Virus record (IMG/VR): IMGVR_UViG_2690316227_000004
DNA length: 7,815 bases
Source: a virus
Taxonomy: Duplodnaviria > Heunggongvirae > Uroviricota > Caudoviricetes
Strand: one strand, 5' to 3'
Shown here one piece after another: positions 4,811 to 7,815 of this stretch. The number at the start of each line of letters is the position of its first letter. Position 1 is the stretch's first letter. The translations under genes were made by a program, and so were the position numbers. The notes below the pieces were generated by a model. It made no database searches and was not told where the DNA came from. It saw nothing but the letters and a program-made list of their open reading frames with translations.

Positions 4811-4964
4811 GCGATACAACAACCATGTGTTTTTACAAAACCATTTGATATCATTTACATTTTTCGCATTGACGACATCAAAACACATCGTAAGGTTGTT
4901 GTATTTATTTTATTTTCACCTTACTTATCAATTAGATATACCAAACAATTAAACAACAACTCCC
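4811..4964 (-). promoter_or_regulatory. cosB-like terminase small-subunit binding region: three copies of an ACAACAAC-type element (R3/R2/R1-like) with an AT-rich spacer
   Basis: Between cosN and the Nu1 start there are three related elements: + strand 4942-4962 (caaacaattaaacaacaac), 4894-4903 (ggttgttgta, inverted) and 4814-4824 (atacaacaacc). Sites 2 and 3 belong to a longer imperfect inverted repeat (4814-4835 vs 4880-4906). The two-direct-plus-one-inverted layout, the AT-rich stretch 4904-4950 and the spacing to cosN and Nu1 mirror lambda cosB (R3-I1-R2-R1), though the motif is not lambda's. Confidence 0.55.
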
Positions 4965-4993
4965 CCTCAAAAAATCTCATAAATAGCGAAAAC

Positions 4994-5015
4994 CCGCGAG
5001 GTCGCCGCCCCGTAA
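4994..5015 (-). other. cosN nicking site; 12-nt cohesive end GGGCGGCGACCT (minus strand) at 4999-5010
   Basis: The reverse complement of 4981-5010 is GGGCGGCGACCTCGCGGGTTTTCGCTATTT, identical to the lambda left cohesive end and its first bases as recalled. The adjacent bases on the other side (reverse complement of 5011-5040, GGGTCCTTTCCGGCGATCCGGGCCGTTACG) closely match the lambda right end (GGGTCCTTTCCGGTGATCCGACAGGTTACG). Confidence 0.9.
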
Positions 5016-5070
5016 CGGCCCGGATCGCCGGAAAGGACCCGCTAAAATGATAATGGTTATCAGTTGCAGC
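5016..5070 (-). other. Conserved genome right-end segment upstream of cosN (expected to contain cosQ)
   Basis: Minus strand reads ..GATAACCATTATCATTTTAGCGGGTCCTTTCCGGCGATCCGGGCCGTTACG, resembling the lambda right end ..GATAATCATTATCACTTTACGGGTCCTTTCCGGTGATCCGACAGGTTACG. The exact cosQ boundaries were not determined. Confidence 0.5.
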
Positions 5071-5332
5071 AAATCCAGTTTCTTCCACCATCGCACCGGA
5101 CCAGCGACCATGAGGGGACAACGCCGCGCTCCGTTTACGCGGTAAACCCCGGTGTGTATCGTTTTTGATTATCCCCGCACACTCGCGCAGAGGAGTCTCC
5201 CTGTCGGGCTGCGGTCTCTGTTAATGAGGGAATACAGCGACGATACAGCGCATGATGTGTCAGGCTTGAATACCTTTATCCGTTAAAAGGGATATCAGTT
5301 AAGTTATCCCGTGTAGGGTATAAGCCATTATC

Positions 5333-5355
5333 AAGCCCACCAGTAGATGGGCTTT
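5333..5355. other. Stem-loop (7-bp stem, 8-nt loop) just downstream of the 85-aa ORF stop; possible weak terminator
   Basis: aagccca(5333-5339) / tgggctt(5348-5354) form a perfect 7-bp stem. No strong U-tract follows on the minus strand (GAUAAUGG); only a short T run follows on the + strand. Function is uncertain. Confidence 0.25.
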
Positions 5356-5362
5356 GTAATGG

Positions 5363-5620
5363 CTACTTCGCTTTTGCTTCCGCTCGCTTACGCCGGCGCT
5401 CTTCTTTCCTCTCGGCTTTTGCCATGTCCATGAATGCCTGCATGATCGAGTTCCGCATCATGTAGCTAACAAAGTGATGATTGACACAGCCGTTGAGGCG
5501 CAGCTGCTCGCCAAACTCATCCACCGAGGCCAATGCTTCCATCATACCCTTCTCGCCTTTCATGAACTCTGAGAAGTCGCGCCCCGCTCTGGAGGCGCAT
5601 TCAATGACACGATCACTCAT
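5363..5620 (-). CDS. Hypothetical small protein (85 aa) with a highly basic Lys/Arg/Glu-rich C-terminal tail; translationally coupled to the upstream KilA-N-like gene
   Basis: ORF with ATG at 5618-5620 overlapping the upstream gene's stop (ATGA). The C-terminus is AKAERKEERRRKRAEAKAK. No family recognised from memory. The coding call rests on the coupling and on its position in an otherwise gene-dense phage segment. Confidence 0.6.
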   Translation of the reverse strand: MSDRVIECASRAGRDFSEFMKGEKGMMEALASVDEFGEQLRLNGCVNHHFVSYMMRNSIMQAFMDMAKAERKEERRRKRAEAKAK

Positions 5621-6114
5621 CCCGGAAGCCCGGGGATCGAAATCTGCAACTGGTTAGCCAGGGAGTTAATTTCAGCGATCAAACCAGGTTTCGTGTAGCG
5701 CCATGCCGCGAGGCCTTGTCCACAGAAGCTCGCCATGTCTTTTTTCTGATCAAACTCATGACATTTCATGTTGAGCTGCGCACTTAAGCTGTTCCGATGA
5801 TGAAGCTCTCCGGTGAAGTAATCATCGAGGACTTTATAGGCTGCATATTTAAATCCGGGGTTTAGCCATGCTGCGTAATCATAAGCAACGAACTTTCCGC
5901 CATAAGTTCCACCGTGCGCACCGCGTTCCGTAAAAACCACAGATTCGTGGTTTTTCTCCAGCTCAGCCAAGAACTCTTTGGTCTGCTTGTTTCGCAGGTA
6001 GTGGTACGGAGATTCAGATTCACTTTTACCACTGGCTTTCCACATATCAGTGAGGCAGATCATGCCATCTTCACCGATACGGATTGGTTGATTGAAGAGG
6101 GTTAATGATTTCAT
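5617..6114 (-). CDS. KilA-N-like domain protein (putative DNA-binding accessory/moron protein), 165 aa
   Basis: ATG at 6112-6114. The N-terminal region IRIGEDGMICLTDMWKASGK....YLRNKQTKEFLAEL...GG.GTYG..FVAYDYAAWLNPGFKYAAYKVLDDY fits the pattern I recall for KilA-N/APSES-type domains. The assignment is from memory, not a search. Confidence 0.6.
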   Translation of the reverse strand: MKSLTLFNQPIRIGEDGMICLTDMWKASGKSESESPYHYLRNKQTKEFLAELEKNHESVVFTERGAHGGTYGGKFVAYDYAAWLNPGFKYAAYKVLDDYFTGELHHRNSLSAQLNMKCHEFDQKKDMASFCGQGLAAWRYTKPGLIAEINSLANQLQISIPGLPG

Positions 6115-6229
6115 AGCGTGTACCTACTCTTTGAAATGAACCTTTGCCGCACAGGAAACCAGCCCACCGAGGCTCGCCAGCACTAACTGGTATCCTCAAA
6201 GGCCCATTCCAAAGGGGCAGGTTCGGTGT

Positions 6230-6254
6230 AAAAAACATGCGTTGCGGTACGCAT
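6230..6254 (-). terminator. Rho-independent terminator (distal of a tandem pair downstream of Rz)
   Basis: Minus-strand RNA AUGCGU-ACCGCA-ACGCAU (perfect 6-bp stem, 6-nt loop) followed by G then UUUUUU (+ strand A-run 6230-6235). Confidence 0.55.
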
Positions 6255-6261
6255 TTATTGC

Positions 6262-6285
6262 AAAAAGCCCCGCATCGCGAGGCTC
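6262..6285 (-). terminator. Rho-independent terminator (proximal of a tandem pair downstream of Rz)
   Basis: Minus-strand RNA AGCCUCGC-GAU-GCGGGGCU (7-8 bp GC-rich stem with one G-U pair) followed by UUUUU, about 30 nt after the Rz stop. Confidence 0.6.
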
Positions 6286-6316
6286 ATTAAATGGACTTTG
6301 TGATTTGCAAAAAAAA

Positions 6317-6754
6317 TTATTTCAGGCATTGCGTCCTGATGTACTCCTGCAGGTAGTTAACCTGCGCGGTTATCTTGTCGATTCCACCTCGGAGACGGTA
6401 ATAATTGAGTTCAGCATCTGCTGTAAGTCCTGGGCTTTCTCCATCGCCCATGCTGCTGGCTCCGGTCGTTGACTTTGCACAGGTGGCGGAGACTTGCAGG
6501 CGCTTACGCCCAGCAGAAACATCAGCACGGAGACTTTCGATAGTCGCATTAGCATCAGCAAGCTCCTTTGTGTATCTGGCGTCAAGTTCTGCTACATCAC
6601 GTTGCCGCTTCTGCATATCAGCGATGATGGATGTGGCTTTATCGCGCTGCTCTTTGTAGGCGATGGCGTTATCACGGTAATGATTAACAGCCCATGAAAG
6701 GCAGACGATGAGGCAGATGACCAGAACGTAGATAATCGCGGTTACTCTGCTCAT
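6317..6754 (-). CDS. Rz: Spanin inner-membrane subunit (i-spanin, lambda Rz-like), 145 aa from ATG at 6752-6754
   Basis: [39 protein letters not shown]... is nearly identical at the N-terminus to lambda Rz ([39 protein letters not shown]) and shares YTKELADA and a C-terminal QC. The track ORF begins 4 codons upstream at GTG; the ATG overlapping the endolysin stop (ATGA) is preferred. Confidence 0.92.
6370..6555 (-). CDS. Rz1: Spanin outer-membrane lipoprotein subunit (o-spanin, Rz1-like), 61 aa, fully embedded in Rz in the +1 frame
   Basis: [20 protein letters not shown]|[16 protein letters not shown]... has a signal peptide, a lipobox (VSAC) and a Pro-rich mature region, as in lambda Rz1. 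AAGGAG lies 7 nt upstream of ATG 6553-6555. The track ORF start at 6583-6585 is a TTG. Confidence 0.8.
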
Positions 6755-7248
6755 TGTTGCCCCCACAAACAGACTTCACGCTCAATCTCACGGCGAGTCA
6801 TCAGCCCTTTCCATTGCTTACCGCCAGCGTATGTCCAGCGCCGTAGCTGATCACATGCGCCTTTGATATCGCCCTGGTTTATTTTGCGAAGAAGCGTCGA
6901 TGTTCTGAAATTGCCAGCGCCCACGTTGTAAACGAACGAGTAAAGAGCGCCGCGCGTTGTTTCCGGTATATCGACTTTGATGTACGGGTTTATTTGTCTG
7001 GCGACCGTGGCAAGGTCTTTATTCAGGAGGGCTTTGCATTCTGCTTCGGTATACGTTTTACCGGGCATGATGTCTTTTCCGGTGTGTCCATGACATACAG
7101 TCCATACGCCAACGATATCTTCGTATGGTATGTAGCTGACACCTTCCAGGCCATCGTCACCACTCGGACCAGTGATGAGCACAGACGCTATGGCAACAGC
7201 CCCACCACCAATAGCAGCAGCAACGGCTTTTCGTAATGATGGAGGCAT
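6751..7248 (-). CDS. R: SAR (signal-anchor-release) endolysin, T4-lysozyme-type muramidase (phage 21 R21-like), 165 aa
   Basis: The N-terminus [30 protein letters not shown] is a Gly/Ala-rich weakly hydrophobic SAR domain. It is followed by an E-x8-D-x5-T catalytic arrangement ([17 protein letters not shown]). The sequence is near-identical to the phage 21 endolysin as I recall it. The start ATG overlaps the holin stop (TAATG). Confidence 0.93.
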
Positions 7249-7454
7249 TATTCACCTCTCGCAGCCTTGCGCTTATCTTCTTTAATCTTGAAATAAAGGT
7301 TTGTCAGATACGTCAGCAGGCCAAACAGCAGACTCCCCAGCACACCTATTGCCACCCACTGGGACGGAGAGACTTTGTCCAGCAGCTGCAGTAACCAGTA
7401 TCCCGTCCCCACCGCTGACGTGGTGTATGACACACCCGTTGTGATTTTTTCCAT
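7248..7454 (-). CDS. S: Class II holin / pinholin (phage 21 S21-68-like), 68 aa
   Basis: [68 protein letters not shown] has two predicted TMDs and a charged C-terminus, closely resembling S21-68 ([68 protein letters not shown] as recalled). GGAGA lies upstream of the ATG. It sits immediately upstream of the SAR endolysin. Confidence 0.92.
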
Positions 7455-7499
7455 CTGATGTATGTCTCCGTCACCGCCGACAGAAAATGAAAGTAAAGG

Positions 7500-7534
7500 A
7501 AAACAAAAAGCCGCCAGTGTCGCCCACTGACGGC
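7500..7534 (-). terminator. Strong rho-independent terminator 45 nt upstream of the holin ATG (tR'-like terminator of the late leader)
   Basis: Minus-strand RNA GCCGUCAGUG-GGCGA-CACUGGCGGC (10-bp stem with one G-U pair, 5-nt loop) followed by UUUUUGUUUU. In lambdoid phages the late promoter pR' is followed by a leader ending in tR', which Q-modified polymerase reads through. Confidence 0.7.
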
Positions 7535-7612
7535 CAACGCCGGGAGCCGTGATTATGGCATTCAGGCTCTGCTAAAAATGCCAGATAACATTCCGGCTCC
7601 CCCCTGATTCAG

Positions 7613-7639
7613 GTTATAAATGACACAATATCTTGACAA
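7613..7639 (-). promoter_or_regulatory. Candidate late promoter (pR'-like) reading toward the lysis genes
   Basis: Minus strand TTGTCA (7634-7639) followed by either TATAAC (15-bp spacer) or TAACCT (17-bp spacer), about 100 nt upstream of the tR'-like terminator. Hexamers and spacing are imperfect; this is a positional inference. Confidence 0.3.
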
Positions 7640-7652
7640 CACCCATCACTGT

Positions 7653-7681
7653 CTGTCAGAAAATGTACTGCCAGATATAAG
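7653..7681 (+). promoter_or_regulatory. Candidate sigma70-type promoter on the + strand (CTGTCA-17 bp-TATAAG) facing the 7710-7752 terminator
   Basis: -35-like CTGTCA at 7653-7658, a 17-bp spacer, and -10-like TATAAG at 7676-7681. It would start a transcript near 7688-7690 that ends at the + strand terminator about 60 nt downstream. Confidence 0.3.
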
Positions 7682-7707
7682 TATCATGTGAAACCCAACT
7701 ATCCTTC

Positions 7708-7815
7708 TTAGCCAGTACTTCTCCGAGGAAAGTCAGTACTGGCTGTTTTTTTCCTTAATAAAGCATCTGTAACTGAAACAATCCGCATATTGATAATATA
7801 TTGACAGGCATCATT
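7708..7815 (-). CDS. 3' end of an ORF entering from the right edge (35 codons then TAA); possibly the late antiterminator Q gene
   Basis: The minus frame is open from the window edge to TAA at 7708-7710 (..NDACQYIINMRIVSVTDALLRKKTASTDFPRRSTG*). In lambdoid phages Q sits immediately upstream of pR' and the lysis genes. I do not recognise the peptide, so the call is positional only. Confidence 0.3.
   Translation of the reverse strand, partial: NDACQYIINMRIVSVTDALLRKKTASTDFPRRSTG
7710..7752 (+). terminator. Strong intrinsic terminator on the + strand (perfect 10-bp stem, U7 tail)
   Basis: agccagtact (7710-7719) pairs perfectly with agtactggct (7735-7744) around a 15-nt loop, followed by ttttttt (7746-7752). 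On the minus strand the same hairpin is preceded, not followed, by the homopolymer run, so it is oriented for + strand termination. Confidence 0.55.

Follow-up and report, generated by a model that had tools for sequence, protein, structure and literature searches.

The window, the whole 7815-nt stretch of DNA analysed here, corresponds to the late region of a lambdoid prophage that resembles Stx phages. As originally predicted, all of its recognisable genes lie on the minus strand, as judged both from the open reading frames and from the annotated relative in E. coli Res13-Lact-PEA14-20 (locus L004). They encode a class II holin, an RrrD lysozyme, an Rz-like lysis protein, a KilA-N domain protein, terminase subunits and a portal protein. 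Window positions 4857-7815 are identical to the L004 sequence (there are 75 differences over the whole window), and the region is 94-95% identical to Stx1 phages including H-19B and YYZ-2008 (NC_011356). The features discussed below are collected in Table 1.

Table 1. Features of the spacer upstream of the holin gene and of its surroundings, in window coordinates.
Feature	Position	Strand	Remarks
Class II (phage 21 S-type) holin gene	7248..7454	-	68-aa ORF; downstream neighbour defining the synteny
Terminator-like hairpin	7499..7535	-	11 pairs (7535..7509), T5GT4, -20.5 kcal/mol; 45 nt upstream of the holin start codon
Nearly invariant upstream block	7633..7667	+	TTGACA (7633-7638), GAAAAT (7659-7664); candidate promoter (putative role)
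Originally predicted promoter, CTGTCA-17-TATAAG	7653..7681	+	CTGTCA 7653-7658, TATAAG 7676-7681
PasA-family sRNA gene (probable)	7668..7752	+	Extent predicted from the 85-nt major PasA species of E2348/69
Intrinsic terminator	7710..7752	+	10-bp perfect stem (7710-7719 / 7735-7744), 15-nt loop, G, U7
Equivalent of the proposed PasA seed	7711..7720	+	PasA GCCAGCACCU; window GCCAGUACUU, two C-to-U changes
Start of a second, paralogous module (EcOnc52 type)	7801..7815	+	TTGACA 7801-7806; cut by the window edge

The same holin accession (WP_000411802.1) is annotated at the matching position in both L004 and E. coli E2348/69. In L004 the gene upstream of the holin gene encodes a 616-aa SASA-family carbohydrate esterase of the NanS-p type, the stop codon of which falls at the window-equivalent position 7902, outside the window and about 150 nt past the plus-strand hairpin described below. 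The antitermination gene Q (L004 12838-13461) is located approximately 3.4 kb further upstream. The original prediction had a minus-strand ORF, a candidate Q, enter from the right edge of the window, and a plus-strand RNA run antisense to its last codons and across the late promoter region. This setting did not survive the comparison. The candidate Q ORF was rejected: in L004, with its identity to the window over 4857-7815, the open-looking frame amounts to no more than 26 aa, and the real neighbour is the esterase gene. No annotated minus-strand CDS crosses 7668-7752, where this spurious 26-aa frame is the sole ORF, so that the 85-nt form of the RNA is antisense to no coding sequence. Because Q lies so much further upstream, there is no late promoter (pR') at the hairpin. 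The context is thus corrected from a Q/pR' junction to the spacer between the esterase and holin genes.

On the plus strand this spacer carries an inverted repeat consisting of AGCCAGTACT and AGTACTGGCT, separated by the loop TCTCCGAGGAAAGTC (7720-7734) and followed by G7745 and a run of seven T residues (7746-7752). The predicted free energy of the hairpin alone is -15.6 kcal/mol, and RNAfold closes the 10-bp stem within 7688-7752 as well (-16.5 kcal/mol, z = -2.3). A comparable structure, defined as a perfect stem of at least 9 bp with a loop of 3-20 nt and a run of at least six T residues within 2 nt, was found in none of 300 dinucleotide-preserving shuffles of the window; two of the 300 pass when the stem limit is relaxed to 7 bp. 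The sole reason that a consensus scan missed the hairpin is that its loop limit is 8 nt. The perfect 10-bp stem with U7 in plus-strand orientation is therefore as it had been described, and its U-tail is likely to be an Hfq-binding 3' end. The accompanying claim that it is the strongest terminator in the window is doubtful, as the minus-strand hairpin between the spacer and the holin gene is the more stable of the two. Over the whole window the consensus scan reports 20 terminator-like sites (7.3 +/- 3.0 in shuffles), on both strands and inside coding regions, and three promoter-like sites, fewer than the 7.0 expected.

The plus-strand sequence at 7668-7752 aligns without gaps with PasA of EPEC E2348/69 (69 of 85 nucleotides identical, 81%) and with the copy in prophage Sp12 of O157 Sakai (74 of 85, 87%); a blastn comparison of the window RNA with the 88% class of homologues gives E = 2e-20. 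The PasA-D sRNAs of EPEC were found by RIL-seq, and PasA was validated in E2348/69 by Northern blot, RNA-seq and RIL-seq (Pearl Mizrahi et al., 2021, Sci Adv, PMC8550237). In that study the gene is placed on the minus strand of NC_011601.1 at 743499..743415 (Table S6 therein), between E2348C_0688 (esterase) and E2348C_0689 (holin) in a '> < >' arrangement; the major form is 85 nt long, and a minor form of 236 nt ends at 743264, at a second downstream terminator. The complement of the PasA Northern probe GCCAGCACTGACTTTCGGTGGAGAG fits window positions 7717-7743 with few substitutions.

The Sakai copy had been detected earlier, when prophage sRNAs encoded opposite the late operon were studied (Tree et al., 2014, Mol Cell, PMC4104026). 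It appears there as EcOnc51, an Hfq crosslinking (CRAC) cluster in Sakai Sp12 (2237479-2237555, plus strand; Table S2 therein), which is listed together with EcOnc52 without further characterisation. It covers the homologous hairpin and tail (window-equivalent 7697-7773) on the equivalent strand; unlike the window, the Sakai copy has a GCAC/GUGC stem and the PasA seed. In the literature searched for EcOnc51 and EcOnc52 we found nothing beyond the tables of Tree et al., with EcOnc50 alone appearing in one review.

The position of the element is also conserved. In the window, as in E2348/69, the RNA gene is flanked by the genes for the SASA sialate esterase and the class II holin and is convergent to both, and the order esterase > PasA < holin > is found in E2348/69, L004, Sakai Sp12 and phage YYZ-2008, the last of which has been named as a PasA carrier in a study of PasA distribution (Zhu, Shabalina and Storz, bioRxiv 2026, 10.64898/2026.05.13.724894). 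The likeness to PasA of E2348/69 extends to the near-invariant block upstream, the homologous 5' end, the U7 terminator architecture and the presence of a second terminator downstream. The two differ by 16 substitutions, two of which are in the proposed seed and three more in the loop, and PasA has a 9-bp stem rather than one of 10 bp. Hairpin, homology, synteny, stem covariation and conserved upstream block are all carried by the sequence itself. Taken together, these data indicate, with a probability of roughly 0.85, that the plus strand at 7668-7752 carries an allele of pasA, a prophage sRNA gene, that has escaped annotation (PasA/PasC family; EcOnc51 in Sakai) and would encode an Hfq-dependent, trans-acting sRNA.

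Rfam 15 includes no family for PasA/PasC-type RNA. The whole window gave no AgvB or AsxR match (RF02702/RF02703) at the gathering score, and positions 7000-7815 searched at E <= 10 gave no match to AgvB, AsxR, STnc100 or OOP; the matches returned were at chance level (Bacillus ncr982, 26.7 bits against a gathering score of 50, and SNORD45). An Rfam model for PasA/PasC would allow such loci to be annotated. The finding is already known in the sense that the gene family, its position, orientation, terminator and Hfq dependence have been published (in 2014, 2021 and 2026), and no new biology is claimed on these points. The case illustrates that a true sRNA gene overlooked by automatic annotation can be recovered when the raw sequence is read with care. 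The original prediction of a short plus-strand RNA that is convergent to the late genes and ends at the hairpin is right in substance by homology to PasA, while the neighbouring gene, length, promoter and mechanism that went with it are wrong. The predicted length of 60-65 nt, for example, compares with 85 nt for the published major PasA species, the 5' end of which corresponds to window position 7668.

The published 5' ends of PasA and PasC fall on the same homologous nucleotide, the C of CTGCC, the two RNAs being encoded in separate prophages. Both ends were derived from RNA-seq coverage and approximate Northern sizes, without 5' RACE (Pearl Mizrahi et al., 2021), and the PasA 5' end may arise via cleavage of a longer transcript (Zhu et al., 2026). 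Across 35 unique sequence variants, TTGACA of the upstream block is present in all 35 and GAAAAT in 34. The mean majority frequency is 0.97 in 7633-7667 and 0.85 in 7668-7696, where 25 of the 29 columns are variable. A conserved block up to 7667, a variable stretch at 7668-7696 and a conserved 3' part form the layout expected for an sRNA that starts near 7668-7671.

Two promoter candidates on the plus strand were compared with a rough sigma-70 weight matrix built from approximate literature consensus frequencies. The originally predicted promoter, CTGTCA-17-TATAAG, has its motifs as described and scores 8.4 bits with a predicted start at about 7688; TTGACA-20-GAAAAT scores 8.5 with a predicted start at about 7671, and its spacer, at 20 nt, is unusually long. 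Scores of at least 8 are reached by about 27 sites in the window (both strands), and neither candidate is above chance. The two scores tie and do not discriminate between the candidates. The original candidate has further weaknesses. Its -10 box takes the forms TAGAAG (including the validated E2348/69 gene), TATAAG, CATAAG, TCTGAA and TATAAA among the 35 variants; TATAAG was not listed by the consensus scan because it lacks the T at -7, and it falls inside the mature RNA because the published 5' end is at 7668. CTGTCA-17-TATAAG is therefore probably not the promoter of the 85-nt species, and the TTGACA...GAAAAT block, as a candidate promoter with a predicted start at about 7671, is the better fit to the published 5' end. 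For the window allele a start at or close to 7668 is accordingly inferred from the homologues. A search for LexA boxes (CTG-N10-CAG) found none at either candidate promoter. The only CTG-N10-CAG near the element is CTGCTAAAAATGCCAG at 7569-7584 on the plus strand, which by eye fits the LexA consensus poorly and is located at least 49 nt upstream of either candidate.

The window allele departs from PasA in the region proposed to select targets. The proposed PasA seed GCCAGCACCU (Fig. S5 of Pearl Mizrahi et al., 2021) coincides in part with the terminator's 5' arm and complements the motif CUG(A/G)UGCUGG in the targets. The corresponding GCCAGUACUU of the window is identical at eight of the ten positions. 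One of the two changes is the compensated pair of the stem, and the other closes the C.A mismatch of PasA, which gives the window stem its tenth base pair. Pairing with G is kept by wobble since both differences are C to U, but with two of ten positions changed the targets of the altered seed may differ from those of PasA.

This allele is a minority form of the element. Homologues are present in 637 of the 5426 complete E. coli genomes, at 1841 places; 80 of the 644 matching E. coli records reach at least 95% identity to the window, while in 562 records the best copy is at 80-90% identity. Among the matches listed for the E. coli genomes, no annotated feature was present at the homologue sites. 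A pattern scan of IMG/VR matched at least 120 contigs, and 18 distinct 85-nt variants were obtained from the viral contigs sampled, the commonest being those of the Sakai Sp12 type (40 copies) and the E2348/69 type (37 copies). The exact 85-nt sequence of the window was found four times and a one-nucleotide loop variant 13 times, which together amount to 17 of the viral contigs sampled. The window allele shares with the E2348/69 PasA and PasC queries only exact words of 14-17 nt. As the longest common word is 17 nt, the published blastn survey of bacterial genomes with a word size of 28 (Zhu et al., 2026) probably missed it, and the PasA copy numbers reported there may be undercounts. The present analysis thus flags a seed-variant allele that a survey of this kind would miss.

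The stem itself shows covariation. In a 15-sequence alignment, 92.7% of the cells of the 10-pair stem are paired, compared with 14-58% when the 3' partner is slid. Three pairs differ on both sides: a C:G pair is replaced by U:A in the window type and an A:U pair by G:C in PasC and module 2, and at pair 10 PasA has a C.A mismatch where the window type has U:A and PasC has C:G. With only two or three independent events behind it, this support is consistent but modest. Any perfect inverted repeat can fold on both strands, and the hairpin could in principle be a structured element of the minus-strand late mRNA, for instance one at which the esterase message is processed or its 3' end stabilised, with its resemblance to a plus-strand terminator being incidental. 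The pair 10 mismatch of PasA would indeed be a G.U pair on the minus strand. The converse holds for PasC, in which a U:G pair would become a C.A mismatch on the minus strand. Moreover, the run of seven T residues is 3' of the stem on the plus strand only and is conserved, and the Northern, RNA-seq, RIL-seq and CRAC signals of the homologues are all on the strand equivalent to plus. A role confined to the minus strand is consequently highly improbable.

A second alternative is that the hairpin with its T-run acts only as a terminator or insulator that blocks stray plus-strand transcription into the esterase and late genes, with the RNA being functionless or the allele in decay. The altered seed could be read in this way, as could the disruption of the module by IS elements in some prophages and the PasA-3 variant, which lacks a terminator and has been called a possible pseudogene (Zhu et al., 2026); function has been demonstrated for no PasA. 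In the window allele, however, the upstream block, hairpin and U-tract are intact, and the change in the stem is compensated, so that its 10 bp compare with 9 bp in PasA. The allele also recurs in the E. coli records and viral contigs counted above, and its homologues are among the most connected Hfq-bound sRNAs (Pearl Mizrahi et al., 2021). We consider a terminator without a functional RNA, or a decaying allele, quite unlikely.

The expected behaviour of the window RNA as a PasA-type sRNA follows that of its published homologues, from which its expression, size, Hfq dependence and RNA partners would carry over. In EPEC lysogens the baseMean of pasA is 3879, against 3.5 for the holin and 102 for the esterase, and deletion of hfq lowers pasA sevenfold (log2FC -2.78, padj 8e-17). 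PasA has 41 RIL-seq partners and is nearly always the second RNA of the chimera, as expected for the 3' end of an Hfq-bound sRNA; the partners comprise core and accessory genes, most of them unlinked, and 34 chimeras join PasA to the 3' end of the esterase mRNA (p = 1.7e-26; all from Pearl Mizrahi et al., 2021). By analogy, the window gene should give rise to an Hfq-dependent, trans-acting sRNA of about 85 nt. In a lysogen, its transcription would begin in the spacer between the genes for the NanS-p-type sialate O-acetylesterase and the holin and run opposite to the silent late operon. Transcription would mostly halt at the 10-bp hairpin and U7, giving an RNA of approximately 83-85 nt, and a minority would read through to the second, paralogous terminator just outside the window, beside the esterase stop codon. 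Hfq would be bound via the U-tail, the hairpin and the U/A-rich stretch that precedes it, and the RNA would pair in trans with mRNAs through a seed overlapping the 5' arm of the terminator stem. As in EPEC, its partners may belong to both the core and the accessory gene sets and include the adjacent esterase mRNA at its 3' end.

The original prediction had instead likened the design to lambda OOP RNA. Both are short, converge on a phage operon and have a strong intrinsic terminator at their end. In the case of OOP the overlap is with the 3' end of cII, and the action is in cis via RNase III, whereas the window RNA overlaps no CDS; the two share no sequence similarity, and the candidate promoters of the window have no LexA box. 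A cis-acting regulator of this kind in the esterase-holin spacer would work chiefly by pairing with the late transcript, or by convergent transcriptional interference, and so lower or delay holin and lysis gene or esterase expression. Such a role would suit an RNA that is convergent to the late operon and perfectly complementary to the Q-antiterminated transcript over 7668-7752, the more so as the 236-nt read-through form extends to the esterase stop codon, the holin is nearly silent in EPEC lysogens with abundant PasA and RIL-seq ties PasA to the neighbouring esterase mRNA. The 85-nt form, however, overlaps no minus-strand CDS, ribosome-binding site or promoter. The contact with the esterase message is within the CDS, past the end of the long form, and consists of imperfect, seed-type pairing that is separate from the antisense overlap. 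Most of the 41 partners are unlinked genes, OOP-type LexA control is not evident at the candidate promoters, and the putative minus-strand terminator upstream of the holin gene would already explain its silence. The published evidence favours a trans-acting, Hfq-dependent sRNA with many mRNA partners, and an OOP-like action in cis is unlikely.

AgvB and AsxR (RF02702, RF02703), two anti-sRNAs from lambdoid prophages, are likewise short, Hfq-binding and antisense to the late operon downstream of pR', and also combine a conserved 3' terminator part with a variable 5' part. They differ from the window element in being located between a moron CDS and the next conserved ORF, the window element lying one gene further downstream, and in their length (51-60 nt, compared with 85 nt for the PasA type). 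The window RNA matches neither family even at the relaxed E-value threshold given above, and sponge activity has been demonstrated for no PasA.

Returning to the reading of the locus as a pasA allele, two extensions of it can be raised: that the minority allele of the window is a functionally retargeted PasA not captured by the published survey, and/or that PasA-type RNAs act locally, on the 3' end of the esterase mRNA or on the late transcript. Local action would mean that expression of the NanS-p esterase or of the lysis genes is tuned, and would tie an sRNA expressed in the lysogen to the late operon of its own prophage. Neither extension is likely at present. The seed variant of the sRNA shows no co-variation with the site that RIL-seq marks at the esterase 3' end, as the site forms CTGGTGCTGGA and CTGATGCTGGA each occur with either seed. 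Full-length RNAduplex predictions for the sRNA and the esterase 3' end were no better than those for shuffles and were discarded as physically meaningless.

The spacer extends into a second, paralogous module, which corresponds to EcOnc52 of Sakai Sp4. It begins within 7773-7815 on the plus strand and continues past the right edge of the window (L004 9347-9450). Its terminator (GCCAGCG...CGCTGGC followed by T7), at the window-equivalent positions of about 7865-7900, abuts or overlaps the esterase stop codon and is the end of the 236-nt PasA form in E2348/69. A promoter-like CTGAAA-18-TATATT (7773-7802, plus strand) was flagged by the consensus scan. PasC of E2348/69 resembles the window element in its upstream block, its 5' end (CTGCC) and a similar 5' half, and it too adjoins an esterase gene, but its terminator is of the module 2 type (GCCAGCG...CGCUGGC) and immediately adjoins the esterase stop codon. 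In its make-up PasC resembles module 1 fused to module 2. IS629/IS3-family insertions with the common junction GGGGCGGTTCA are present in Sakai Sp4 (L125, 1182130) and in viral contig L106; in some prophages such insertions cut into or remove the first sRNA module, leaving module 2 only or a truncated stem.

On the minus strand, the hairpin at 7499..7535 may act as a terminator: the drop in baseMean from 102 for the esterase to 3.5 for the holin in EPEC lysogens would fit a stop of transcription between the two genes. The top-scoring promoter-like site of the region, TTGTCA-17-TAACCT at 7611-7638 on the minus strand (11.1 with the approximate matrix, start at about 7604), sits about 70 nt upstream of this hairpin. 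Its -35 element, TTGTCA, is the reverse complement of the plus-strand TTGACA(A), so that the two candidate promoters would stand back to back. Site and hairpin together predict a minus-strand RNA of about 105 nt, or a terminated leader that silences the holin gene in lysogens.
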